A DNA stretch of 64,000 bases from Tubulanus polymorphus (lineage: Eukaryota; Animalia; Nemertea), in NCBI RefSeq assembly GCF_964204645.1, contig NC_134030.1, positions 17,630,210 to 17,694,209 on the forward strand, in the 5' to 3' direction. Positions 18,590 to 49,866 of the stretch are shown piece after piece (the first letter of the stretch is position 1; each line of letters starts with the position of its first letter). Both the position numbers and the translations under genes were made by a program. Below the pieces are notes generated by a model, which saw only the letters and a list, made by a program, of their open reading frames with translations, ran no database searches and was not told where the DNA came from.

Positions 18590-19144
18590 AGCTGGCTCCC
18601 GGTTCCCGGTTCCTTATTCGGCTCCCGATTCAAAATGCTATTGAACCGGGAGCCGAATCGGGAACCGGGAACCGGGAGCCGGCTACTGGTTCAGCTCCCG
18701 ATTCAAAATGCTTTTGAACCGGGAGCCGAATCGGGAACCGGGAACCGGGAGCCGGCTACTGGTTCAGCTCCCGATTCAAAATGCTTTTGAACCGGGAGCC
18801 GAATCGGGAACCGGGAACCGGGAGCCGGCTACTGGTTCAGCTCCCGATTCAAAATGCTTTTGAACCGGGAGCCGAATCGGGAACCGGGAACCGGGAGCCG
18901 GCTACTGGTTCAGCTCCCGATTCAAAATGCTTTTGAACCGGGAGCCGAATCGGGAACCGGGAGCCGGCTACTGGTTCAGCTCCAGATTCAAAATGCTTTT
19001 GAACCGGGAGCCGAATCGGGAACCGGGAGCCGGCTACTGGTTCAGCTCCAGATTCAAAATGCTTTTGAACCGGGAGCCGAATCGGGAACCGGGAACCGGG
19101 AGCCGGCTACTGGTTCAGCTCCCGATTCAAAATGTGAAGCTGGC
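18590..19144. repeat. 66-73-bp tandem array (..TTCAAAATGCTTTTGAACCGGGAGCCGAATCGGGAACCGGG..), ~7 copies
   Basis: Direct tandem repeats bracketed by GTGAAGCTGGCT at both ends; probably the internal array of a MITE. Confidence 0.9.
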
Positions 19145-33443: not shown

Positions 33444-33984
33444 ACTAAGCTGTGCAATAACTACATGTATATGTACAAATTTAGTATCAATGAATTGTTA
33501 ATTTGTAGTATGTTTTAATTTAGATAGCATAGTTTGTATGGGCATATCGATATCCTTGAGGTGTTCGACAGTAAAATATGAATAAATTGGATATACGTAT
33601 CAATAATAGGAATTAATTGACCTTAAGATAGTATCTACTTATAATCCCTTCAAAGGGAGGGGATTACCTACTTTGAAGAATTGGGGATTTTTACCGAGGG
33701 GATTTTTACCTAGGGGATTTTTACTCGCTTACTTAGATGTTTTGAATTATTAACTTAGTTGTTTTGTTAAGTTTAAGTTCATCACTAGTAAGTTTATTCA
33801 TTGACCACTTGCATGATAGTTCTTGATATATTCTTTATATGCAATGAAATGAAATGTAAGTTCACCACATTTCTGAACTCATTAATACCGATTTTAATTG
33901 TTTTAAGCCCCATGAAAAATATATGATATCATTAAATTGAAAGTTTAATGTTTTATTAACATTGGCAGTAGTCCTCATAAATTT

Positions 33985-34105
33985 TCCTTGGCCTTTTTTT
34001 CGTGGCCATTTTTTCCCTTGGCCATTTTTTCCTAGGCAAATTTCCTTTGCCATTTTTTCCTTGGCCATTCTTTCCTGGTCATTTTTTCTTTGGCCATTTT
34101 TCCAA
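33985..34105. repeat. ~15-bp tandem repeat (GGCCATTTTTTCCTT)n
   Basis: About 8 degenerate copies immediately left of the Polinton-like element. Confidence 0.8.
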
Positions 34106-34262
34106 CATTCTGGGGTTTTTACCGCTAACCTTTAGCAATGCACTGTAATGAACAATTTACTTTGTTTTGCTAAATTAACTACAGTAATTAGGAAATAGCG
34201 TTTTCAGATCGGAGGTCGAGGGTCGACCACTCATCACCACAAGTAATTTTTTTTCCTAATAA

Positions 34263-37200
34263 ATGGGGGAGAATGAACACCAGCCAGAAAATAATAATGT
34301 TAATAAAAATCAATATTATTGCCAATATTGTAAGAAAATACATCGATAAATCCCAAAAATCACGACATGAAAAAACTGCAAATCATATAAAAAATGTAAT
34401 AGATTTTGAAACTCCAGAAAATTCCAATGAAAGAAAAGAACGATTAGAAAATATGAATGTGGATGAAATAAAATGTGAAGTTTGTAATGAATTTATAGTA
34501 AAAAAGAATTATAATAGACATCTCGAATCACAAAAACACCATCAAAATTTGAGTAATAATGTTTTAGGAAAAGATTATTTTGATGATAAACCTCAAAAAG
34601 TAAAAAAAAAAAAACTTCAAAAACTAAATCCATTTCAAATAAACCTTACATGGAAAATGTTAGAAATTATATTGATTCACTAGAAATAAAAGATACAATT
34701 GAAATTTTAGAAACATTACATAGTAAAATTGGTCCTGCAGCTATTATATTTAGATTAGAAGATTATAGAAGATTATAGTACATTTAATGAAATAATAGAA
34801 AAAATACTAGATTTGATAACAGATGTTGAATATCCAAAAATTAGTATCTCTGGGAAAGTAAGTTTTATAAAAGTCAGAAGAAAAAATGAATTATAATATT
34901 CAAACACACTCTGAAGAAATAATTTCATAAACACAAATAAAAGAGAAGTTAGAAAAAATATTTAATGAATTTAAACGTCATATTGAAGAAAGATATTTTG
35001 AGGGTTCTGGCTTAACATTGAATGAAATTATATATTTAGATTTAAATGTTTATGATACAAAAAGGAATAAAACATCAAAAAGTAATAAAATGTTTAAAGA
35101 TAATTCAAACTTTACAACAGAAAAGGAGGATATTAAAGGATCATCTTATATTAAATTACCATTTACAATAAAAGCAGTAATAAATGTTCAAAATGAAGAT
35201 AACAAATGTTTTCTGTGGGCAATTATAAGTTGCTTACATCCAACTAAGGAAAATGTTTGTAGAATAACAGATTATCGGAAATATGAAACATCATATAAAA
35301 TTGATCAATATCCAGTAACTATAAAAATGATTCCTAAAATAGAAAAAATTAATAATTTAAAAATAAATGTATTCGAATTAATGCAATTACCAAAGACAAA
35401 AGGTGAAAATATTAAAGATTATACATTGGAAACTTTATATTTAACAGAATATTATGATGATGAAAATGCTATAGATTTGTTATTTTACAAAAAAGATGAA
35501 AATGAACATTATATGTGGTTAAAACAAATTGATCTATTCTTTAGAACAGAAAGTGATTTTAACAGTCATAAAATTTATCTATGTAGAAAATGTTTATCTA
35601 AATTTAGAACTGAGAATGCGTTACTAAAACAAAAAGAATTATGCGATAATAAAGATTTTTGCAAATTAATAATGCCAACAGAAAAAGATTATAAACTGAA
35701 ATTTACTAATCATAAATCTAAAATTATTGTTCCATTTGTAATTTATGGGGATTTTGAATCGTTGAATAAAGAATTAACTGATCAAGATAGAAAAGAAATA
35801 TATAACAAAAAGCAATTATTAAAATCAATGGATAAAGGAAATGAATTAAATGAAGACACAACACAAGATAATTATAAATACAATTTAAAAAGTTCATCAA
35901 AGAGCTGCTGCTTATGGAATTTACATCAAATCAAATTATCCCGAATTATATGAAAGTCAATATATTTCTTTTAGAGGTGAAGATGTAGTTAATGATTTTT
36001 GTAATAAAATAATTGAATTAGAAAGTGATTTTGCAAAATTATTAAACAAAAATAAAAGAATAGTTATGACAAAAGAAGATGAAATTGATTTTAATTATGC
36101 GACTCATTGTTGTTATTGTGAAAAACGTTTATTATTCATTTGATAAAAAAGTTAGAGATCATGATCATTTAAATTCAAAATATCGTGGAGCTGCTCATGA
36201 AGATTGTAATTTACAAGCTAAAAAAGTAAATTTCGTTCCAATATCATTTCTTAATTTATCAGGCTATGATACCCATCTATTTATAAAACAATTATCGGGA
36301 AAATTGGGCGCAATTAATCAAGAAATAGAAGATTATAATGCTATGGATGGTGTAAATGTAAGAAAATATGATTTTAAACTATTAGCTAAAACATCCGAAA
36401 ATTATATTTCATTTCAATTTGGTTGCATTAGATTTTTAGATTCTTATAGATTTCTAGCAAGTTCATTAGATAATTTATCAAAAAGTTTAGTTGATAATGA
36501 TTTTATAATAACTCGACATTATTACCCAAATGAACAAGATTTTAAATTATTGAGATATAAAGGCGCAATTCCTTATTCATTTTATAAAACACATGATGAT
36601 TTTAATGTAACAGAATTATTAAAAGAACAATTTTATGATCAATTAAAAGAGGAGGATGTGAAAGACGAAGTGTTTAATAGAACATTAAATATTTGGAACC
36701 ATTTTAAGATGAAAAATCATGGTGAATTAGTTGATTTATATTTAAGATCAGATGTTATGATATTGGCTGACATATTTGAAAAATTTAGAGAAGTTAATTT
36801 GAATCATTTTAATGTTGATCCTTGTTATTGCTACTCTAGTCCTGGTTTAACCTGGCAATGTGGTTTAAAAATATACAAATGTAGAATTAGATTTATTAAA
36901 AGAACCAGACATGGTTTTATTATTTGAAAAATCAATTAGAGGTGGAATTAGTGGTGTTATGGGAGGTATTTATGGTATTTTAAAGCAAATGATGAATATA
37001 AATTATTATATATTGACACCAATAATTTATATGGTTGGGCAATGATGCAACCTCAACCATATAAAAATCTTATATTAACAGAAGTTGAAAATGATGATAA
37101 AACTGATTGGGAAAGCGCAATTATGAGTTTAAAAGATGAAGCACCAATTGGTTATTTCTTTGTAGTTGATTTAGAATATCCTGAAAATATAAAGTTTAAA

Positions 37201-39326
37201 ACAAGAAACTTACCTTATTGCCCAGAACATTTAACTGTAGATGATAGTTATTTAAGTGAATACCTGAAGAAAAAAAAACCGAAAGATCATGTTTTTACAG
37301 AAAAATTAATACTTACTCAAAATAATAAATACAATTATATCGTTCATTATAGAATGTTAAAATTTTATCTAAAACAAGGAATGAAATTAAAGAAAGTACA
37401 TAGATATATTGAATTTAATCAATCGAAGTGGTTAGAAAAATATATAGATTTCAATACTCAACAGAGAACAATATCAAAAACAGATTTTGAAAAAGATTTC
37501 TTCAAATTAATGAATAATAGTTTTTATGGTAAAACATGTGAAAATATTAGAAATAGAAATGATATTGAATTAGTAAATAATTCTGAAAGATTAAGACATT
37601 TACAATCAAGTCCTAGACATTTAGGAAATAAAAGATCTGAAGATTATTTAACAGCAGTTAAATTAAAAAGAACGTCAATGAAATTTAATAAACCTATATT
37701 CATTGGTTCAACTGTTTTAGAAGTATCAAAATTATTAATGTATGATCTTTATTATAATGTTTTACAACCACTTTTTGGGGAAACGCATATTGAAATATTA
37801 TATTTTGATTCTGTAACAGCTGACACCCCAATATCATTAAAATGTAATAATAAAATATTAATTAGAAGAATTTCAGAAATAATTCCAAAACAAAATGAAT
37901 GTTATATTTCATATGGTGAAAAAGAATTAATACAAATAAATGAATTAATGGATGTTTGGACAAGAAATGGATGGAAAAAATTAAAGAATATTATTAGGCA
38001 TAAAACAAATAAGAAAATCCATAGAGTTAGAACTAAATTAGGGTTTGTAGATGTTACAGAAGATCATAGTTTAATTAAACGAAATGGTAATGAAATAAAA
38101 CCAACTGATATAAAAATTGGAGATGAATTATTACATAAAAGATTTTTCCAAAGAATGAATCATATGTCATTTGATGAAATTGTTGATAATATTTATAATA
38201 TAAAATCCGAAACATTAGAAGAAAAAGAATATTTTATCAAAGGATTTTTCATGGGTGATGGTTCAGCAGGTGTGTATAATTATGTTTGGGGTAATAAATA
38301 TAATAGTTGGTATATATGCAATCAAGACTTAAAATTATTAGAAAGAAATTCTGTGAAGAAGTTTATTCTCATAAAACATTTAAAATCATAGATGTTATGA
38401 AATCATCAGCAGTTTATAGAATACATGTAAATAATCCTAATGATTTTGCTATAAAATGTAATGATGAATTCTATATTCATGCAATAGTGAAAAGTAATAC
38501 TTCAACAAAAGAAAAGATAGTTCCAGGTTATGTATTAAATGCAAAAAATAATTTGAGAAAGTGGTTCTTCATTGGATTCTATGCCGCAGATGGCACTAAA
38601 AAATTTACAAAGGATAAAAAGATAACCTTTGCACAGAAAGGACAAGTTGCTATATCAGGATTAAATATATTATGCAGTTCATTAGGATTTAATATGAATA
38701 TAGAATTAATTAAATCTAAACCAAATTGTTTTAATTTAAGGCATGTAGAAAAAGAATTAACAGAAGAAGTTAAAGATTTATTTGAAATATATAACCCATC
38801 AGATTATGTTTATGATTTATCAACTGAAGATGGTACATTCAACTGTGGATTTCCATTAATTGCAAAAAATACTGACAGTTACATACTAAAAATCAAGACA
38901 AATGACATAACAAAAGACTTAAAAACATTAAAACATCATTTTGATTTTAGCAATTATCCCAAAGATCATGAACTATTTAGCAATGATAATAAAAATATTC
39001 CTGGTAAATTTTAAGATGAATTAGGGGATGTTGAAATGATTGAATTTGTTGGGATAAGAAGTAAAATGTATAGTTATAGAACAAAAGATCATGAAGCTAA
39101 AAAGTTAAAAGGAATAACAAAACATGTGGTTGATAAACATATAGAATTTCAAGATTATATAAAGTGTTTATATAACTCAATTGTAATGAAACATAAAATG
39201 AATTGTTTAAGATCAGAAAATCACGAGATGTATATTAATGAAGTTGAAAAAACTAGTTTGAATCCATTTGATGATAAAAGGCATATTTTAGATGATGGTA
39301 TAAAAACATTACCTTATGGCCATTAA
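34263..39326 (+). pseudogene. Protein-primed family B DNA polymerase (pPolB) with N-terminal zinc fingers, an HNH-like insert and an intein; several frameshifts and stops
   Basis: INVQNEDNKCFLWAI; ExoI VIYGDFES; ExoII NLSGYDTHLFIK; FLDSYRFL; ExoIII YLRSDV; IRGG; motif A YIDTNNLYGWAM; motif B KLMNNSFYGKT; motif C YFD|TDS split by the intein; EFVGIRSKMY; KLKGI; FDDKR. Confidence 0.93.
37810..38870 (+). mobile_element. Full-length intein with LAGLIDADG homing endonuclease in pPolB motif C (pol-c site); one frameshift at ~38345
   Basis: N-extein YFD (37801-37809). Block A SVTADTP; block B DVTEDHSL; LAGLIDADG motifs FIKGFFMGDGS (38233) and FFIGFYAADGT (38565); block F YVYDLSTEDGTF; block G LIAKN. 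C-extein TDS (38871). Confidence 0.93.
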
Positions 39327-39601
39327 AACAGAAAATCAATATCATCATACTCGAAATCACTATTGGCTTCTTCATTTTCATTTAATTGTTCTTGTATAAT
39401 TCGTTTAGGTTCTTCCATTTCATTTTTCTCATTTAAATAACGTGTTATATTGTGCCACATTTCATCTCGCTCTCTTTGTTTCTTTTTGTTTGTTAATTCA
39501 TCAAATGGAATTATAATATCGATGTTTAAATAATTTACAATCTTATTTAAAAAGAATTCACAATTAATTGAATCTGTTATTCTATTTTCCAAATGATACA
39601 T
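39323..39601 (-). CDS. Hypothetical viral protein (acidic C-terminus)
   Basis: Intact ORF; its start overlaps the upstream stop (TAATG). Confidence 0.55.
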   Translation of the reverse strand: MYHLENRITDSINCEFFLNKIVNYLNIDIIIPFDELTNKKKQRERDEMWHNITRYLNEKNEMEEPKRIIQEQLNENEEANSDFEYDDIDFLF

Positions 39602-40371
39602 TAATATTTGTTTGAATGTTTTTTTTTAATATTTTCCATATCTTCTTCTGTTAATTTAGGTTTTTCATAATAATCGTTAAATAATAAATATAAATACATT
39701 TTCTTTTGTTTTGTGTTAAATGTTGATGGAATAATTGTTTTTATTATATCTTTTTTAGTTATTTCACCATTTTTATTTTCTATCATTTTCATTTTTTCAA
39801 GCCATTGCATATATTCTGGTGTATGATCTTCTATAGAAAATATTTTAAAAATTTCATCTAGATAATTTAATTTTGGTTCTATGAGAAAATCTCTAATTTT
39901 TTCTTCACCCCATAAATTCCTTTGCCATCCACAATCAACACAAAATATCTCAGTACCCTCTTGTCTTAAGGTCGCATAATAACATTGTGGGCATTTTTGT
40001 TTATAATTTCTTGGTAATAGATCTTCATTAAGCTCTTGGTATTTACTTACGTTTTCTATATGTTTTATTGTTCTATTATGTAGATTTGAATTACTAGCTG
40101 TAATAATCAATTTACAATATTTACAATAATATGTTTTTCTTGTTAATTCATTATATTGTTTTTCTAACTTTTCAACTGTTTCTTTATTATCTGGTAACGT
40201 TTTCTCATATTCTATTTTTTCTAATAAACTATTTTTTCTTTCATTGAATTCAGTTTCAAATTTATTTGAAATTTTATCTATATGTATTTTACGAAATTGA
40301 TGATTCTCCCAAGCTTCTATATTTTCAGGACTAAATTTCATTCGACAAGGCTCGCAGAAATGATCTTTCAT
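39601..40371 (-). CDS. Viral multi-zinc-finger protein (two C2H2 H-x5-H fingers plus a C4 ribbon)
   Basis: CEPC..H-x5-H, CKYC..H-x5-H, CPQC..CVDC. Confidence 0.7.
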   Translation of the reverse strand: MKDHFCEPCRMKFSPENIEAWENHQFRKIHIDKISNKFETEFNERKNSLLEKIEYEKTLPDNKETVEKLEKQYNELTRKTYYCKYCKLIITASNSNLHNRTIKHIENVSKYQELNEDLLPRNYKQKCPQCYYATLRQEGTEIFCVDCGWQRNLWGEEKIRDFLIEPKLNYLDEIFKIFSIEDHTPEYMQWLEKMKMIENKNGEITKKDIIKTIIPSTFNTKQKKMYLYLLFNDYYEKPKLTEEDMENIKKKHSNKY

Positions 40372-40652
40372 ATTATCCTTGTCATAGAATAAGAAAGGTC
40401 TTTTCCAAATAATTTCAGGTTCAACTTCAACAGAATTACTATTACTTTCATTACTATCAACATTAGCCGTTGCGCCATTAATTTTACACTTCTCTGAATG
40501 TTTTTAACATAATTTCTTGAGAACAATTTATTACATTTTGGGCAGTTTATTTTAGGGGGTTTATAATTTTCATCATGTTTTTTCATATGTCGAGCCATAT
40601 TACTTTTTCTTAGAAGTTCACCACAAATTTCGCATGCTATCTTCTCATCCAT
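40368..40652 (-). CDS. Viral C2H2 zinc-finger protein (probably frameshifted)
   Basis: CEICGELLRKSNMARHMKKH, then CPKC; TAAATG start. Confidence 0.7.
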   Translation of the reverse strand: MDEKIACEICGELLRKSNMARHMKKHDENYKPPKINCPKCNKLFSRNYVKNIQRSVKLMAQRLMLIVMKVIVILLKLNLKLFGKDLSYSMTRII

Positions 40653-40720
40653 TTATTAAGGAAAAATTTTATTGAAATTAATTTTTAGTGATGAGCGGTA
40701 ATTTTTTCATGTTATAAATA

Positions 40721-41497
40721 ATGGTAGAATTAAAAGAATAAGAATACAGAATATTTGTTGATTCTAGAAAACTTACAAATTATAGATCACATGATTTACT
40801 AGTTCAATTAGATAGAGAATTTAAGAATTGTGTTGATTTAAAATGAGTAAATATAAGTTTATGTAATTCTTCTTATAATATAACAGCTAAAACTTTTGAA
40901 CATAGAGACTTTTTAATTCATATTGGAGACTTTTTAATTCATATTGGAAATAAAAATAAATGGTTTCATCTATTTTTAAAACCAGGGTTATATAATTTAG
41001 AAACATTAGCCCAAGATATTAATCGGAAAGCAGGATTAAAACTTGAAAGTGAAGATAAATTTTCAATTAGATTTATAAAAAGTGATTGTTCTGATAAAAT
41101 TAAAATAAAGTTAGCCAATGAACAAAATAAATTCATGGTAAACAAGCCAATAGCTAAAATGTTAGGAATTAAACCGCGTATTGTTACTGGAAACGTAGAA
41201 GGTAGCTCAAATTAAATACCTTTTACACACTTTTATATTTATTGCAATTTAATTGACCCAACAAAAACATTTGAAGCAACTAAAGATACAATTTGTAATT
41301 CTAGTATACTAAATATTTTACCATTAAAAAATATTAAACAATTTGGAACGCAAATAAATTATAATTTAGCTGAATGAAATTTTAAACCTTGTATTCTTCA
41401 ATTTAATAATTTTAAATTAGAAATAAGAAATCATAATGGATATTTAATTGATTTGAATAACTTTCCTGTAATTTATGAATTAGTTATAGGATGTTAA
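40721..41497 (+). pseudogene. Minor capsid protein (penton, single jelly-roll)-like pseudogene; not in the ORF track
   Basis: Manual translation gives LKPGLYNLETL..FYIYCNLID..ILNILP..LEIRNHNGYLIDLNNFPVIYEL, matching Polinton penton-type motifs. Several stops and a ~22-bp tandem duplication near 40905-40950. Confidence 0.65.
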
Positions 41498-41500
41498 GAG

Positions 41501-41523
41501 TAATTTTTTTCACTATATAAATG
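41501..41523 (+). promoter_or_regulatory. Representative copy of the element-wide TAATTTTTT-N6/7-TAAATG promoter-like motif
   Basis: TAATTTTTTTCACTATATAAATG. Related copies precede starts at 34263, 40652(-), 40721, 41878, 42124, 42567, 43009, 44268, 45741 and 48966. Confidence 0.75.
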
Positions 41524-41874
41524 AATATAACTGTTGGACCGAGTATACGTTTTGGGTTTGATTTTAAACGTGAGAAAGAAATGAAATTTAACATTACTGA
41601 TGTAATTATACATATTAAAAATATTGCATTTTCTAATGAAAAAACATTAGAGTATGAAACAACAATAGATAAAGAAACTTTAAATGTAGAAAAGATTACT
41701 AATTTAATTAGACAATCTTTAAGATTTTATGAATTAGATGAAGATTTTATCATCGATGATATTAAAAAAATAATAATTGAAATATACACAAATGAAACTA
41801 GTAATGAAATAAATGTTGAAATAATTATAAATAAGATAACTAAATATTTTGAAGATAGTAATTTTTTTGATTAA
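41521..41874 (+). CDS. Hypothetical viral protein
   Basis: Intact ORF with the conserved upstream motif. Confidence 0.6.
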   Translation: MNITVGPSIRFGFDFKREKEMKFNITDVIIHIKNIAFSNEKTLEYETTIDKETLNVEKITNLIRQSLRFYELDEDFIIDDIKKIIIEIYTNETSNEINVEIIINKITKYFEDSNFFD

Positions 41875-41877
41875 TAA

Positions 41878-42099
41878 ATGAGTGATAATAAGTGGATAAT
41901 AACTGGATTATATGATGGAGCATTACTATCAGTTGGAACTGTTGGTTATTCAATGGTATTAAAAAAAGTATTTAAAATGGGAAGTATTAATGTTGATAGA
42001 TTTGATATAAATGATATCTTAAAATTAACATTAGCAGTTACTTTATCTAATTTAACTATTGATTATTTAGAAAAACAAAAATATATTCCTCCCATATAA
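41878..42099 (+). CDS. Small hydrophobic viral protein
   Basis: 73 aa, two hydrophobic segments, conserved upstream motif. Confidence 0.6.
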   Translation: MSDNKWIITGLYDGALLSVGTVGYSMVLKKVFKMGSINVDRFDINDILKLTLAVTLSNLTIDYLEKQKYIPPI

Positions 42100-42123
42100 A
42101 TGCGTAATTATTTTACTAAATAA

Positions 42124-42540
42124 ATGGCTTCTGCAGTTATAACTATTATAGGATCGGCAATTGTTAACGCTTTAGCATTTACTGGTGGTGGATATTTATT
42201 TAAGCATATTGATAAAAATGGATCATTAACAGAACAAAAAAGATATAACTTAGCAGTAGAAAAATACAATAAAGCAGCAGAAGAATATAGAGAAAAGAGG
42301 CAAAACTATATGGATTATATTAACAAGGAATTATATGATCAGAAGATTTCACATAGAGATTTTCAATCAGTTGATGATGCAATGAGTTTATATAACGCGG
42401 TAACAAATAAAGAAAAATTACATATATACAAACCTAAATTATCAGATTATTCTACCCCAATTAAAGAACAACAGAAATATGAATTATTTGGATTTTAGGC
42501 GGAACTGTTATTGTTATATTTGTAGCGTATAGATTTACTA
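42124..42540 (+). CDS. Viral protein with N-terminal hydrophobic helix and coiled coil (C-terminus frameshifted)
   Basis: MASAVITIIGSAIVNALAFTGGGYLF..; conserved upstream motif. Confidence 0.6.
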
Positions 42541-42566
42541 ATTAGTAATTTTTTTTTGCAAAATAA

Positions 42567-42992
42567 ATGGATGATAATATTGATATTATTCCTCATGATA
42601 TAAATAAAACTAAATTAAAAATGTATTTAGAAAAACAAATATTAGAATTTGAAAGTGACTTAAAGATAAAGAAGAAAAAATATTTAAAAAGTAAAATTAT
42701 ATATTATTTGATTATCAGTGGTTCAGTTACAATTAGTTCTGTAATAACATTTCTAGCAATATTCAGCCCATTAACACCTTTAGCTATATCAATTGGTGTA
42801 TTAGGATTAAGTTCAAGTGTTTTAACCGGAATAATTTCAAAATTAAATATAAAAAGTAATAAAGAAAAAATTTAAACTAATATAAAAGAAATTAATAAAT
42901 TGAAGAATACACTAGATTATATAATAAGTTTAAATGGTCATATAACAGTTGAAGAACAAGATAAATTATTAAAAGAATTAGTTAATTATTAA
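42567..42992 (+). pseudogene. Two-TM viral membrane protein (premature stop at 42873)
   Basis: Two hydrophobic helices; the frame continues past the stop to TAA at 42990. Confidence 0.55.
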
Positions 42993-43008
42993 TTTTTCTA
43001 TTATATAA

Positions 43009-44251
43009 ATGGTAGATAGTTTTCCAAAGGCTTTCCAATATAATAAATCAATTAAATATAATATTCCTGCAATAGATTTTAATAAAGATATTACATATAG
43101 AAATGAAGTTTTAGATTCATTAACTAATTTAGAAATTTATGTTACTGAAACTAAAATGAAATAAATCTAATATGAAGTATTGGCAGAACCAATTAAATTT
43201 TGCTGTTTATTGCGCTACAACAGGATGTGGAATAAGTTGGAATGATCATTTAAACAAACCAAGTTTACCATTGATGTTATCACATTTTAGATTTCATACT
43301 TATTTTCAAATAAAATTAATATTAGATGAATTAGAATGTCCTTTACCAGGTTCAAAATATTTTAAAGAATTGAATAATAATATTAATTTTTCTAAGTTTT
43401 ATAAAATATGTAATGAATTTAATATTAATTCAAATAAAGATTTTAGAGCAAAAATTGGAACAATGGGTAGATTAGGAATATTATATACTAAAGAATTTGG
43501 AAAAATAATGACAAATTCAGATATAAGAACACCAAATTGGAATGAATTACCAAAATATTATAATAATATACAACAACAAAACAATAATGGTTGGGTTAAT
43601 TTCATTTTAGAAAATAGTGAAGGTTTTACTAAAGCTGGAATACAAAGAATAAATCAATCTATTAGAACTTATTTGATATGTATTTTAGGTGCGCAAGTTG
43701 AAACAAGATCACCAATATTTGGAAATGATAACACTTCATTTGATGCGCAGAAATAATTCAAAGTATTATTTGAAGATTCAATTCATAATGATAAAAATAG
43801 ATCGATTCCAGAAAACATTTAAAGATATCAAAATTATCTAGATAAATCACATATTAGATTAAATTATTGTATAGGCCCTAATATATTAATTATTTCTAAT
43901 GATTTAGTATTAAAGATGGGAAATATAATTGGTTATAATAATCTAATTAAAACTGCAACAATAAATAATTCATTTGGATTAAATGATATAAATAAAAAGA
44001 TTATTACTGCTCCAAAATTAATGGAAGGTGAAAAAAATAAAAAACATATTCAATCAACAGAAACTAAAACTAAGAATATTAAATTAAATAATGATTCTAA
44101 ACCGGATTATAATACATCAAAAAATATTAAAACTGATAATATTCAACATGATATTAAAACTGATAATGATAATAAATTCCATGAAAATACTAAATTAGCT
44201 TTAACTTGTATAGGAATTGTTATAGGAGGAATATTATATTTTAAATTTTAA
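43009..44251 (+). pseudogene. Conserved-looking viral protein of unknown function with C-terminal TM anchor
   Basis: Fragments WQNQLNFAVYCATTGCGIS.., FRFHTYFQ, SIRTYLICILGAQ and a terminal LALTCIGIVIGGILYF. Contains stops and a frameshift. Confidence 0.6.
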
Positions 44252-44267
44252 TTTTTTTATTATACAA

Positions 44268-45724
44268 ATGGATGTAGAAGGTGGAGAAGATATTGGAATA
44301 GATAATTTTGATGAACCTGGCATAACTGATGAACAACAACCTGATTTTAGTGAAACAAGTTTTAATGACGGTAATGAGCCAGAATATAATAATAATTTAA
44401 ATATGCCTGATTATATTAAAAATGCTGAATCACAAATAGATCCTGAAAATGTAATTCCAGATTTAGTAAAACAAGATTTAGATAATTTAAACAAAATACC
44501 TAAATTAAAACGTATAATTGAAAATTCTGAATTTATTATAAATGATGAAGCCGTTGGACCTTTGGCAGATGAATTAAAATTTTTAGATAATGGTAAATGG
44601 TATTATCATTTTTAAGGTGATTATTATATTGATATCACTTATAAACGTGAAAACAAAATATTAGCAAAATCAACTTTAGAAAAATTAGAACCAGGTAGAA
44701 TTAAAAGAATTAGTAATAGTAATGTAATAACTGATGTTATAAAACAAGAATTAACTGTTAATGATATAGACGTATTTAAACAAAAAATTAATGAATTATT
44801 TGAAAAAAATCAAAAGTAAATCAGAAACGGAAACAATTCCTAAAGAAGTTAATAATTCCAAAACTAGTAAACTTAAATCAAATAAAGTTCCAATTGAAAA
44901 ACTTTTACCGAATGGATTAATTGATGCAACAGATCAACAATTAGAAGATTTAAATAATATATTTTCTGTTGAAGCAATTAGAGAAATTAAAAGTATAAGA
45001 CTTGCATCTGATAAAATTGCGCATGATAAAAGTATGAGATATTAAAATTAGAACTTTAGAAAAAGAATTAACTGATAAAAATAAAGAAATAGAACAATTA
45101 AAGTCTGATTTAGATCATCAAGTAATTGATGAAATAGAATATAGGCACAAAGAATTACGATTAGAAAAAGAAATTAATAATTTAAAAGATAATTTAGAAG
45201 TAGAGAATGAAGAAATTAAATTATTATTAAAATCATATGATTATAATATTAATAGATTAAAAGTTATTTTTAAAGATTTGTTGATAAAACCAAATTCTGA
45301 AATATCATTGAAAGATAGAATAAAATTATTATCTAACTTAGAAGGAATCACAATTCTTTCAATTCTAACAGCTGTAACTATGTTATTTACAACAATTGGT
45401 TTAGCAATATCAAATTCATTAAAATCTACACCTACTCCCAATAAACCAGATAAACCCCCGAATGATAATAGTTCTATTCCAGATAAAGTTAAAGATGGTT
45501 TAAAGAAATTAGCAAAATATTTATGGGAACTATCTAAAAAATCTGCTGCAGCTTTACCAGGAATTATTGCATCAATTGTTAGTTTTATATTGAAATCTGC
45601 AGGTAATATTCTTAACTTTGCTGCTGAACATATTATTTTATTTTGAATTACAGTTGTAAGTGCTATTATTTTTGGGTTAGTGAATATGATATCAAAAAGA
45701 TATCAAGAAAAAATAAATAATTAA
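44268..45724 (+). pseudogene. Large viral protein: acidic N-terminus, coiled coil, C-terminal hydrophobic/amphipathic helices
   Basis: ORF pieces 44268..44615, 44791..45045 and 45278..45646 form one broken frame that ends at 45724. Confidence 0.6.
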
Positions 45725-45740
45725 TTTTTTTGTTAAATAA

Positions 45741-46994
45741 ATGAGTGGGAGTTATATAAGTCCTTCTAATATTTCTAGAATATCTAATGCTATTAAAGCA
45801 GAAAGATCACATCATATAATTACTCATAATCCTTCAAATATTAATCCCGATGAAACTTTATATGTTAGAATTCCTAGATTAACAAAAAAATACTCTTTAT
45901 GTTCCAAATAGTATTTATTTATCAGCCGATATAAAAGTATCTGGTCATGATAATAATTATGTTGTCGATAATGTTGGAAGATATTTGATTAAAAAATTAA
46001 CTATAATGATTGGTCCAGAAACAGTTTTCTCATTAGATGATTATAATTTATTCATGCATTATAAAGATTTATGGTTAACTAAATGAAATAGAAATAATAT
46101 GATATTTCAAGGCATTCAATCGGAAAACCATAATAAATTAAGATCAGGAGCTAATGACGCAATAGTAACCCGTGCCGCAGATAATTTGATTAAAATGATT
46201 TATGAGAGCAAATATAAGTTCCATTAGACTTTGAATTGATAAATAATAATGTACCTTTATATAAATATGTAATTCAAGAAGATATGATATTTGAGATAAC
46301 ATTTGCTCCTGCAAATGCAATTGTATTATCTAGCGTTGTTAAAGATATGAGTTATAAATTATCGAATATATGTTTAGAATATGACACAGTAACTAATGAA
46401 AATATTGCTAGCACAATTCAAACTCAATACAATCAAGGATTTTCATTACTATATGATTATATTGATAAATTTAAAACTGTAACTATTAATGCAAATGATG
46501 AAATAATTAATGAGAATATTAACTTCCCAAGAAGATCTATTAAAGGTATATTAATATTTTTTACCATTGCAACATATTCTAATGGCGCAATAAAGGTAGA
46601 TAATTATTATAATCCTGAAATAGCAAAAGTAGAAATAACAATTGAAGGCATAGCAAATAAAATATTTTGTCAAGGAATGAGAATGATAGATCAATGGCCA
46701 GAAATTAGAAAACATTTTATGAATGAAAAAGTAAAATCATCTGAAAATTGTAATATTAATCAAATTGATTATTATGCCGGTAATAAATATGCATTATGGT
46801 TAGATTTTAGAACAACAGAGGATAATTCATTACATGGTTCTGGAAAAAAACTACAGAACACTAAAGATGGAATACAATTATTCATGAAAAAGAAAAAAAG
46901 AAAAGGAAGCTTAAATTTTAAATTGCACATTTATATTATATCTGACGCACAATTAAATATTGTAAATTCACAATTAGATAGTATTCAATATTAG
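45741..46994 (+). pseudogene. Major capsid protein (double jelly-roll)-like, disrupted
   Basis: ~415-codon beta-rich frame (ITHNPSNINPDETLYVRIPRL..YKLSNICLEYDTV..YALWLDFRT..LHGSG). Size and position fit a Polinton MCP; the fold cannot be verified without a profile search. Confidence 0.65.
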
Positions 46995-47024
46995 AAATAT
47001 AAAGTTAAAATTAACGATATATAA

Positions 47025-48152
47025 ATGTGTGGTACAAAAACTCCTAATACTAAAGAACAATATTTAAGAACTTTATATTACAACCCTGAGAGTTCGGTTG
47101 CTTATTCTTCAACCAAAAATATATGGCGTCAAGTAAAACAAGATAAATTAGATAAGATAATCCCACAAAATGTAGTTAAATATAAAGATATAAATGAATT
47201 TATGTTAGAACAACCAACATATACTACACATAAAAAAATTGTTAGAAAATATAAAACTCGTAAAACTATGGTAAGTTATGTAGATCAACAGTTGCAAGGA
47301 GATTTAATTGATATGAAAAATGTTAAGAAAGATAATGATGATTATTGGTGTGATATTGAATATAATTGATATTTTTAGTCGTTATGTATGGAGCTTCCCA
47401 CTTTATAGAAAAGATGCTGCACAAATGTTTTAAGAAAATTTCTTTCGGATGATAAACTAAAACCAGAAAAAATACAATTTGATGATGGAAAAGAATTTGA
47501 TAATTCACTTGTTCATGAACTCTTAGAAAATCATAATATTAAATATTTTTCAACAAAATCGGATAAAAAAGCAGCAGTTGTTGAACGATTTAATAGAACA
47601 TTAAGAACAAGAATGTGGAAATATTTTACAGCAAATAATACTTTTAAATGGATTGATGTTTTACCAAAATTGATAGAAGGATATAATAATTCTTATCATT
47701 CTTCTATTGGAATGAAACCTATTGATGCTAGAAAACCTGAAAATGCTGAAATTGTTTGGAATAAATTATATGGAGCATTTCTTGTAGATGATTTTGGTGA
47801 ACCTAAATTTAAAGTTGGTCAAAATGTTAGAATTTCTAGGTATAGAAAGATATTTGATAAAGGATACGATCGAAATTTTACTGGAGAAATATATAAAATA
47901 AAAAAGGTAATAACAACAAAACCATATGTCTATAAATTAGAAGATTTAGATGGTGAAGAAATTGATGGCTACTTTTATGAAGAAGAATTGAGTTTAAGTA
48001 CTGAAAATCTAGAACAAGAATATAAAATTGAAAAAGTATTAAAAACAAAAACTATTAAAAGAAAAAAATATTCTTTAGTAAAATGGGTTGGATGGCCAGA
48101 TAAATTCAATGAATGGATAATATCAAGTAAAATTAAAAAAATATATAAATGA
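47025..48152 (+). pseudogene. Retroviral-like (rve) integrase with C-terminal chromodomain
   Basis: YYNPES..; QGDLIDM; FDDGKEF; KAAVVERFNRTLR; YNNSYHSSIGMKP; KFKVGQNVRI; chromodomain EYKIEKVL..VKWVGWPDKFNEWI. Frameshifts near 47350-47460. Confidence 0.92.
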
Positions 48153-48757
48153 ATAAGGAATTATTTATATTTGAGACTCATAATATGTTCATTTCTGGCG
48201 TAACAAATTGTGGAAAAACTTATTTTATATTAAATTTATTAGAAACTGTTTATAAAAACTATTTTGATAATATAGTATTATTTTGTCCAATATATGAATT
48301 TAATCAAACTTATGATAGAAATATTACTAGAAATAATAAATTTATTATATTAGATCCTAAAACAGTAAAAGAAAATTTAGATAATTGTATTAAAATAGCA
48401 ATAGATATTTATAAAGGATCAAATACATTATTCATTATAGATGATTGCGCAAATTTACATGATTCAAAAGTGAGAGAAAGTGAGTTATGTTATCTGACTT
48501 TCTCTGGGAGACATTTTGGGATAACAACATGGGTTTTAAATCAAAAATATAATTCAATTGTTAAAGACTTTAGAGAAAACATTAGATTTCTAGTTTTATT
48601 CTACAATAAAGATAAAAAATTGATGAAAAATGCACTTGAGGAAAATGATATTATTCCACATGATTAACATAATGAATATATGGATAAATTGAAAAATATT
48701 AAAAGATCAAAATTACTATTTAGATTACAACACCCATTTAAATATGAATTTATTTAA
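48149..48757 (+). pseudogene. A32/FtsK-like DNA packaging ATPase (premature stop at 48665)
   Basis: Walker A SGVTNCGKT, Walker B FIIDD, SGRHFGIT and the downstream NQ motif. Confidence 0.88.
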
Positions 48758-48965
48758 ATTCAACAGGTTTGTTAATCTATTACATATTTAGTTACATTCT
48801 AGTTGAATTCTAGTTATTAGTAGTTGGAACAAAAATCAAATAAAATTCAACAAGAAATAAACAAAAACAACAATATTTCAACTAGCTTGTTAATCTAGTT
48901 GAATTCTAGTTACATTCTAGTTGAATTCTAGTTGCAACAACACAACTAATTTGTTTGTTATATAA

Positions 48966-49556
48966 ATGGTGGGTGAAAAGAAAATAAAATCTAAAAATGG
49001 TGATGTTCCAATTGAAAAAACATTAGATGATTTAGGAATAACAGAAACAAAATTAATTCCAGATGATGGTGCTTTAAATAATGTTACAACAAATAATAAT
49101 TATGAATATTATCTTTATTGTAAACATCAATTAGAAATATTAATAGCATCTGGAAAATGTAAAAATTTTATCGGTAAAAATTTAACTTATAAAGAATTAG
49201 ATACAATGAAATCACATGAAATTATTAGATTATTTAAGATTTATGAAACCGCGAGAACAGCTAGAATTAATGACGCGATATCAGAAAATGTAGTTAAAGG
49301 TTATAGTAAATTATGTAATTATATGCTGCCAATTCAAGATGAAAATAGATTATATGCTGATTTAAAAAATGATTATTTAGTTATGACCGAATTAAATAAA
49401 TGGATTGGATATTTATCATTTCAATTAGGTGGATTTATGACATTATTATCAACTGGAGCTACAACATTTTCAAATATTGAAAGTAAAAATATTTCTGTAA
49501 TAAATGAACAAGGTGGAAGAAGTGAAGAAAAAACCGAGATCACAGAAACAAATTGA
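48966..49556 (+). CDS. Hypothetical viral protein
   Basis: Intact 196-aa ORF with the conserved upstream motif. Confidence 0.6.
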   Translation: MVGEKKIKSKNGDVPIEKTLDDLGITETKLIPDDGALNNVTTNNNYEYYLYCKHQLEILIASGKCKNFIGKNLTYKELDTMKSHEIIRLFKIYETARTARINDAISENVVKGYSKLCNYMLPIQDENRLYADLKNDYLVMTELNKWIGYLSFQLGGFMTLLSTGATTFSNIESKNISVINEQGGRSEEKTEITETN

Positions 49557-49866
49557 ATGGTCTCGGCAATTAGGAATTAAATCACAAGAATATAAAAAAG
49601 CTGTAAAAGAAAAAATAAGTAATAAAAATGTTAATAAAAATGGTGAAAATATTGTTATTTCTACTCCTTCTAATGATAGAATATTTGATAAATGTCTATA
49701 TTTTACAGTTGGATTTGTAATTGTATTCATTTTGATTGGGTGTAATTGGTATAAGAAATCAAATAAAATTCATGATATTAATAATTCTGAAACAACTGCT
49801 ATTAAAAATGAAAATACTTCTGAAATTCCAAAATTGATAATAAAAAAAAATGGATTAATTTTTTAG
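49504..49866 (+). CDS. Basic viral protein with one TM segment
   Basis: KKKPRSQKQIEWSRQLG.. plus hydrophobic LYFTVGFVIVFILIG; TAAATG start. Confidence 0.55.
   Translation: MNKVEEVKKKPRSQKQIEWSRQLGIKSQEYKKAVKEKISNKNVNKNGENIVISTPSNDRIFDKCLYFTVGFVIVFILIGCNWYKKSNKIHDINNSETTAIKNENTSEIPKLIIKKNGLIF

Follow-up and report, generated by a model that had tools for sequence, protein, structure and literature searches.

Catalytic motif C of a Polinton protein-primed DNA polymerase is interrupted by a LAGLIDADG intein with relatives in other Polintons

Introduction

How does a family B DNA polymerase of the protein-primed kind (pPolB) come to have its catalytic motif C split by more than a kilobase of coding sequence, and does the insert behave as a resident of one gene or as a mobile element in its own right? 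The window (the whole stretch of DNA analysed here, 64,000 nt) contains such a gene within an AT-rich Polinton-like element. An earlier note on this DNA, made from the letters alone, had read the insert as a giant-virus-type intein that homed directly from an NCLDV or mimivirus PolB into the lineage of the window element. We examined the insert, the element around it, its relatives in protein, contig and read collections, and the separate histories of intein and extein.

An intein at the pol-c site of the window polymerase

The insert lies between the YFD and TDS of motif C, where the polymerase reads YFD/SVTADTP...LIAKN/TDS (5′ boundary 37809/37810), and its length is not a multiple of three. 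Its features, in positions of the window, are as follows.

37810..38870, + strand: LAGLIDADG intein of 1,061 nt (~354 codons), with one frame break near 38345 (sequence and family profiles; 62-65% identity to the intact intein of P0001)
37810..38130 (right edge approximate), + strand: N-terminal Hint (splicing) region, with the Ser1 codon starting at 37810 and block B, TEDH, at 38056-38067 (TIGR01445 above cut-off; PDB matches PI-PkoII and 9hth)
38242..38594, + strand: two LAGLIDADG-type motifs, GFFMGDG at 38242-38262 and GFYAADG at 38574-38594, which flank the frame break (family profile matches I-DmoI, PI-SceI and PI-PkoII)
38808..38873, + strand: C-terminal splicing region, with block F, VYDL, at 38808-38819, the terminal Lys-Asn at 38865-38870 and Thr+1 of the extein (sequence)

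The split of motif C by an insert with a single change of frame, as the earlier note had described it, is thus borne out by the sequence, as are the splicing blocks and both endonuclease motifs. The N-terminal half of the insert scores 27.7 bits against TIGR01445 (intein_Nterm), above the curated cut-off of 24.5; searched separately, the halves match Pfam Intein_splicing (E 0.003) and LAGLIDADG_3 (E 0.017), both below cut-off. A profile of the intein family gave 23 PDB matches, among them PI-PkoII (E 5e-15), PI-SceI and I-DmoI, and a structure model built from a shallow alignment was too poor for use (pLDDT 43.7). The residues of a canonical intein are present (Ser1, TEDH, the block F Asp, the terminal Asn and Thr+1), while the penultimate residue is Lys and not His. 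A penultimate His is usual in class 1 inteins without being universal. In a pattern-selected set of 277 related site-C inteins, 126 end in KN, and 140 have KN or SN in place of HN. Several motifs of the window intein are presumably shared with the mimivirus PolB intein, as the earlier note proposed.

The D/T position had been named as the pol-c site, and the available part of Ogata 2005 (PMC549080) does place an intein there, at YGD/TDS. Removal of the insert restores YFDTDS, which is what relatives with an empty site read, and the insertion is in frame in P0001, P0002, P0335, P0289 and P0401; the window copy is itself frame-broken. Base composition is alike in insert and polymerase (24.7% against 23.9-24.8% GC; GC3 0.12-0.13 against 0.14-0.16). 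Judged by its sequence, the insert is a canonical-looking LAGLIDADG intein at the pol-c (YGD/TDS) site, for which splicing is predicted.

Other identities for the insert were considered. A hedgehog or BIL Hint domain was ruled out, in line with the earlier note, by the endonuclease and the two exteins, and no hedgehog protein is among the 23 PDB matches. A chance ORF was rejected. A chimeric join of intein and extein was likewise discarded: the 5′ junction is spanned by two read contigs (contig 10 of X2 and contig 2 of X1), and intact relatives contain both junctions.

The host element is a decayed Polinton

The extein had been assigned to a Polinton pPolB, and both its PF03175 match and its pPolB relatives agree. 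The surrounding element was annotated as follows.

34190..49870 (edges approximate): AT-rich (22-25% GC) Polinton/adintovirus-like element, with flanks of ~31-46% GC (composition, ORF profiles)
34273..39326, + strand: gene for a protein-primed DNA polymerase B, broken into several pieces and with the intein inside motif C (PF03175 E 4e-8; tblastn with P0356, P0357 and P0001)
45883..46994, + strand: broken gene, likely for the major capsid protein (Capsid_N of Pfam, E 0.005, below cut-off)
47025..48152, + strand: retroviral-type integrase with a C-terminal chromodomain, broken (rve_3 E 0.049, Chromo E 9e-4; IS481 and IS3 models E 3e-6 and 2e-5)
48149..48667, + strand: A32-like packaging ATPase (Pox_A32 E 9e-13, above cut-off)
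34231-34267, 40690-40726, 41489-41525, 41846-41882, 42535-42571, 42977-43013 and 45709-45745: candidate sites of the motif TAATTTTTT (sequence comparison)

The gene set (pPolB, retroviral-type integrase, A32 ATPase and capsid gene) is that of a Polinton/Maverick, with weak matches for capsid and integrase. Outside the intein the polymerase is interrupted at further points, the genes for capsid and integrase are likewise broken, and the window copy is an inactive, decayed relic. Between the two ends of the element we found neither a terminal inverted repeat pair nor a target duplication, and the copy may perhaps be truncated. Among the 22 ORFs scanned in the window, several of which have no assignment, none gave a Pfam match to a maturation protease or a minor capsid gene. 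An HNH/endonuclease-VII-like motif can be read in the polymerase near 36150-36215, and the intact relative P0335 matches PF02945.

Several features of the element and its borders are recorded here as observations. Upstream of several element genes, TAATTTTTT is followed by a short spacer and a TAAATG-like start, an arrangement that we take to resemble the poxvirus late-promoter TAAATG. Immediately to the left of the element (33680-33730 and 33982-34130) are short repeats of the GGGGATTTTTACC type together with a tandem array of 14-15 nt units; they are possibly a remnant of the left end and have no counterpart at the right end. Beside the polymerase, on the - strand at 39323-40503, are two ORFs, of which one weakly matches Pox_VLTF3 (E 1.5e-4) and the other encodes a zinc finger of the U1 type (E 7e-7), and two small unassigned ORFs with hydrophobic, Gly/Ala-rich N-termini occupy 41878-42498.

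The flanks of the element contain a Harbinger-type transposase, a reverse transcriptase and microsatellites, together with a RecQ-type ORF; the Atlas clusters nearest to this ORF are eukaryotic, with Cnidaria as the commonest phylum (0.97, 0.95). From these flanks the host is likely an invertebrate animal. Arrays of ~70-nt repeats, partly palindromic, are also seen in the host flanks at 18590-19134, 51973-52286 and 60737-61293.

Filled and empty sites among pPolB relatives

At least 16 other protein clusters (90% identity) combine a pPolB flank with an intein at the same site (P0001, P0002, P0149, P0283-P0286, P0289, P0292, P0296, P0303, P0316, P0376, P0401, P0432 and P0443). The intein is complete and in one open frame in five of them: P0001, P0002, P0284/P0335 (one cluster), P0289 and P0401, the last a cluster of 136 members. 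The intact P0401 passes Pfam Intein_splicing and Hom_end, and LAGLIDADG_3 or Hom_end is above cut-off in P0001, P0335 and P0401. The window copy retains both LAGLIDADG motifs, as do the intact relatives examined. One pPolB record, P0286, has Ala in place of the Asp immediately before the intein and is likely a decayed copy.

A search with the N-terminal half of the intein returned 109 long proteins, the best two of which, P0001 (64%) and P0002 (52%), are unbroken polymerases of PF03175 whose intein occupies the same site; the remaining 107 lack PF03175 and are RNA-primed PolBs or topoisomerases II. In a second search, 10 of 51 shorter proteins had pPolB flanks. Empty sites are common as well. 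Among the 120 nearest relatives listed by a search with the N-extein, 5 are intein-bearing, 77 read the motif without an insert and 38 were left unclassed. The nearest N-extein relative of the window, P0356 (88% identical), reads YFDTDS without an insert.

Broader collections contributed little. A profile search of 1.84 billion representatives gave one pPolB-flanked match among the 150 listed, because PolBs with several inteins fill the top ranks. In viral and metagenome contigs, none of 165 intein-bearing ORFs, at no fewer than 164 loci, had a pPolB extein as its best match (pattern scans; alignment scans covered the best 80). Scanning such contigs with P0401 gave no match, whereas P0356 found three pPolB loci, two of them with an empty motif. 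Phage records gave two weak matches, and the leads from an Atlas search with P0401 were all below 0.9.

Sequencing reads contain both states of the site

The earlier note had called for a search for intein-plus and intein-minus copies, and both occur in reads as they do in the protein relatives. Four runs of one organism contain 40-47% of the window's words; run X6, of which ~12% was read, bears the same species label, and the organism may be another individual or a related species. Summed depth in X6 is 114-260 over the intein, against 269-504 over the flanking polymerase sequence, and just 184 of the 5,358 placed reads are at least 99% alike, a pattern that points to many diverged intein-bearing copies in the organism sequenced. 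The high depth could come in part from free virus. At the frame break of the window copy, ~116 of ~180 reads have a different sequence, so this break is not a fixed feature of the family.

A precise empty site is seen in 32 X6 reads, placed at 85% likeness, that join 37809 directly to the C-extein, with a further 69 loose ends departing at 37809; these reads may derive from a sister subfamily. A codon difference was seen beside the junction: the Ser of the TDS that follows the intein (window 38871-38879) has an AGY codon in the window copy and TCN in the empty-site reads. TCN is used in 96 of 113 giant-virus-type loci, and AGY in two empty pPolB loci. The contrast could, weakly, mark a short co-conversion tract.

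Kinship of the Polinton inteins

Nine of ten pPolB inteins form one clade with support of 99/94 (bootstrap not fully settled), in a tree made after removal of 18 distant rows, 6 fragments and 1 long branch. In a larger quick tree, 13 of 14 pPolB inteins came together (SH 88) against 59 non-pPolB inteins, chosen out of 142 representatives as the 36 nearest, 10 at random, 7 of site B and 6 of D/TDG. The intein of P0289 falls outside the main clade, nearer to the PolB site-C inteins, and may be a separate entry, while the test neither rejects nor establishes one origin for all pPolB inteins (p-AU 0.275).

With another pPolB intein the window intein shares 64% identity, and with giant-virus inteins at most 44%, figures that largely refute, for the window copy, a recent direct transfer from a mimivirus-type PolB. 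In the separate trees suggested by the earlier note, the extein does group with Polinton pPolBs, as predicted, and the intein sits in the Polinton-wide clade. Sisterhood of this clade to the nearest giant-virus group is neither rejected nor established (p-AU 0.242). Outside identities are 33-47% to site-C inteins of metagenomic PolBs, as against 26-35% to three long-branch inteins on large-phage-like loci; those three attach beside the Polinton clade, so the root position of the intein tree is not fixed. Many of the top outside loci are named GVMAG. By identity, the nearest non-Polinton kin of the window intein are giant-virus PolB site-C inteins. Giant viruses appear the likeliest source, since they hold by far the greater diversity of the family, which is found there also in PolB site B and topoisomerase II, in a sample that was itself assembled by searching for this intein family.

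The range of the family is worth recording in its own right. Members occur in viral-type topoisomerase II at D/TDG of the toprim motif and at PolB site B (N/SxYG) (examples of both: P0017, P0027, P0038, P0158 and L062), and some PolBs carry two or three inteins of the family. PolBs on large phage-like contigs have long-branch members at D/TDG (L001:8105-12568, L002:8129-12589, P0044 and P0089).

Signs of movement among Polintons

On a 42-row tree of pPolB exteins (the 77 empty records thinned to 33, and P0002 omitted since it aligns too poorly), the distribution of the intein needs 9 changes, at least 8 of them forced by starred branches. A single intein-bearing clade is rejected (p-AU 5e-55), and the sister of the window is the empty P0356. 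This scatter fits gain or loss, and within one pPolB class an old gain followed by many precise losses also fits. P0002 is more telling. Its intein is 47-55% identical to others of the clade, whereas local alignments of the extein give 24-38%; in the intein tree it joins those of the window and P0001 with support of 98/95. An intein of the same clade in a very distant pPolB class indicates movement between Polintons, and it is likely, on these comparisons, that the intein spreads between them and is still, or was recently, mobile.

Proposed mechanism and alternative explanations

We consider it probable that a LAGLIDADG intein splitting YxD/TDS of Polinton pPolB splices itself out in intact copies and homes into the empty sites of other Polintons. 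N–O shift, transfer and Asn cyclisation are the established chemistry of inteins. In the precursor, an N–O shift at Ser1, transfer to Thr+1 and cyclisation of the Asn would restore DTDS, without which the polymerase would have no catalytic motif. The freed protein, with its two LAGLIDADG motifs, would cut empty DTDS-coding DNA, and repair of the break from a filled copy would spread the intein, either between elements that infect together or between copies scattered through a single nucleus; a multi-copy element would supply empty targets in both settings. Entry into Polintons would have been from the intein pool of giant-virus PolBs, as one or two ancient events; a non-canonical jump is the probable route, given that ordinary homing would demand flanking genes more alike than these. 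The copy in the window would then be a decayed passenger, brought into the host genome by the integrase of its element. For the wider proposal, that animal genomes carry true homing inteins in Polinton pPolB, which home in the germ line among transposon copies and cross between pPolB classes and to or from giant viruses, we would put the chances at about even.

A different history could be read from the same trees: an ancestral Polinton gained a true splicing intein once, and its descendants inherited it and often lost it precisely, the endonuclease no longer homing. The test that leaves one pPolB origin standing favours such a history, as do the similar intein and extein identities between the window and P0001, P0401 and P0335 and the fully ameliorated base composition of the insert. 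Yet it would need many exact excisions, given 77 empty against 5 filled sites among the 120 relatives listed and at least 8 changes on the tree; it leaves unexplained why P0002 is so much closer in its intein than in its extein; and it sits poorly with the two endonuclease motifs kept in the window copy and its intact relatives. We regard it as unlikely. That the intein passed recently, in one step and during co-infection, from a PolB of mimivirus type into the window element, the origin first suggested for it, seems to us hardly credible: the shared site and the closest outside identity, to giant-virus site-C inteins, speak for it, and P0289 may be a separate entry of this sort, but the window intein lies inside the nine-member pPolB clade and is much closer to another pPolB intein than to any from giant viruses.

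The element might instead belong outside the animal germ line, as a Polinton-like virus of a protist or symbiont or as free viral DNA joined by assembly error. The missing terminal repeats and target duplication would suit this, and related records come partly from metagenomic sources. Against it, the window copy is decayed in several genes, as an integrated relic would be, the flanks carry the transposase, reverse transcriptase and microsatellites and the RecQ-type ORF with its Cnidaria-dominated clusters, and the runs of one organism hold many diverged copies. We consider this improbable, and return to homing among Polintons as the preferred reading.

Comparison with known systems

The window intein is, as far as sequences can tell, a known allele type of intein in a new kind of host gene, and one that is widespread among Polintons. 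Our literature search, outside subscription journals, Repbase and InBase, found no paper on Polinton inteins. The available parts of PMC12220804, PMC3671162, PMC5718144 and PMC5871332 contain no Polinton intein, and a motif search in the available supplements of Starrett 2021 and Jeong 2023 gave no match, the control motif DTDS likewise giving none. In Green 2018 (PMC5784728), as far as available, eukaryotic inteins are counted in fungi, protists, plastids and NCLDVs, with zero for Metazoa, and the supplement files at hand have no Polinton, Maverick or adintovirus entry. A Polinton-wide intein clade would change both the zero count for Metazoa and the absence from Polinton papers. It would also show directly, at the sequence level, that Polintons and giant viruses exchange genes, a standing question, and would be a natural case of a homing endonuclease that targets dispersed repeats instead of alleles, whose persistence in animals can be tested from genome data. 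The germ-line homing reading, if true, links the mobilomes of giant viruses and animal Polintons. For pPolB annotations and trees, the insert should be removed first.

Like the Polintons/Mavericks (adintoviruses) in the available part of Starrett 2021 (PMC8502044), the window element is AT-rich, ~16 kb long and has pPolB, integrase, A32 ATPase and a capsid gene; it differs in having no identified terminal repeats or maturation protease. The text and the part of the supplement at hand of that paper make no mention of inteins. Nuclease domains inserted in Polinton pPolB are themselves on record, as HNH/VSR inserts (Jeong 2023, PMC10748475; Krupovic 2024, PMC11071308, each in the parts available). 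Those are described there as nuclease domains at other positions, whereas the window has a complete Hint and LAGLIDADG intein in the catalytic motif. The word intein is absent from the main text and supplement of Jeong 2023 in the form available to us, and the accessible text of Krupovic 2024 suggests in one sentence, citing Jeong 2023, that pPolB nuclease inserts arose from intein invasions.

Among inteins, those of fungal and protist nuclear genes (VMA1/PI-SceI and Prp8, in the available part of Green 2018) are also LAGLIDADG inteins in eukaryotic nuclear DNA, and the family profile matches PI-SceI; they reside in single-copy host genes, whereas the target of the Polinton intein is a dispersed family of mobile elements. 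The closest known counterparts are the pol-c inteins of NCLDV and archaeal PolBs, such as the 351-aa Mimivirus PolB intein, which interrupt the same point of motif C (YGD/TDS), with Ser1, Asn and Thr+1, ~350 aa and two LAGLIDADG motifs (Ogata 2005, PMC549080, in the part available). The same part of that paper doubts ordinary homing across very distant genes, and the same caution applies to the Polinton intein. Unlike the pol-c inteins, the Polinton inteins lie in the protein-primed, not RNA-primed, PolB of an integrating element, form a clade of their own and occur in many copies in a eukaryotic genome.
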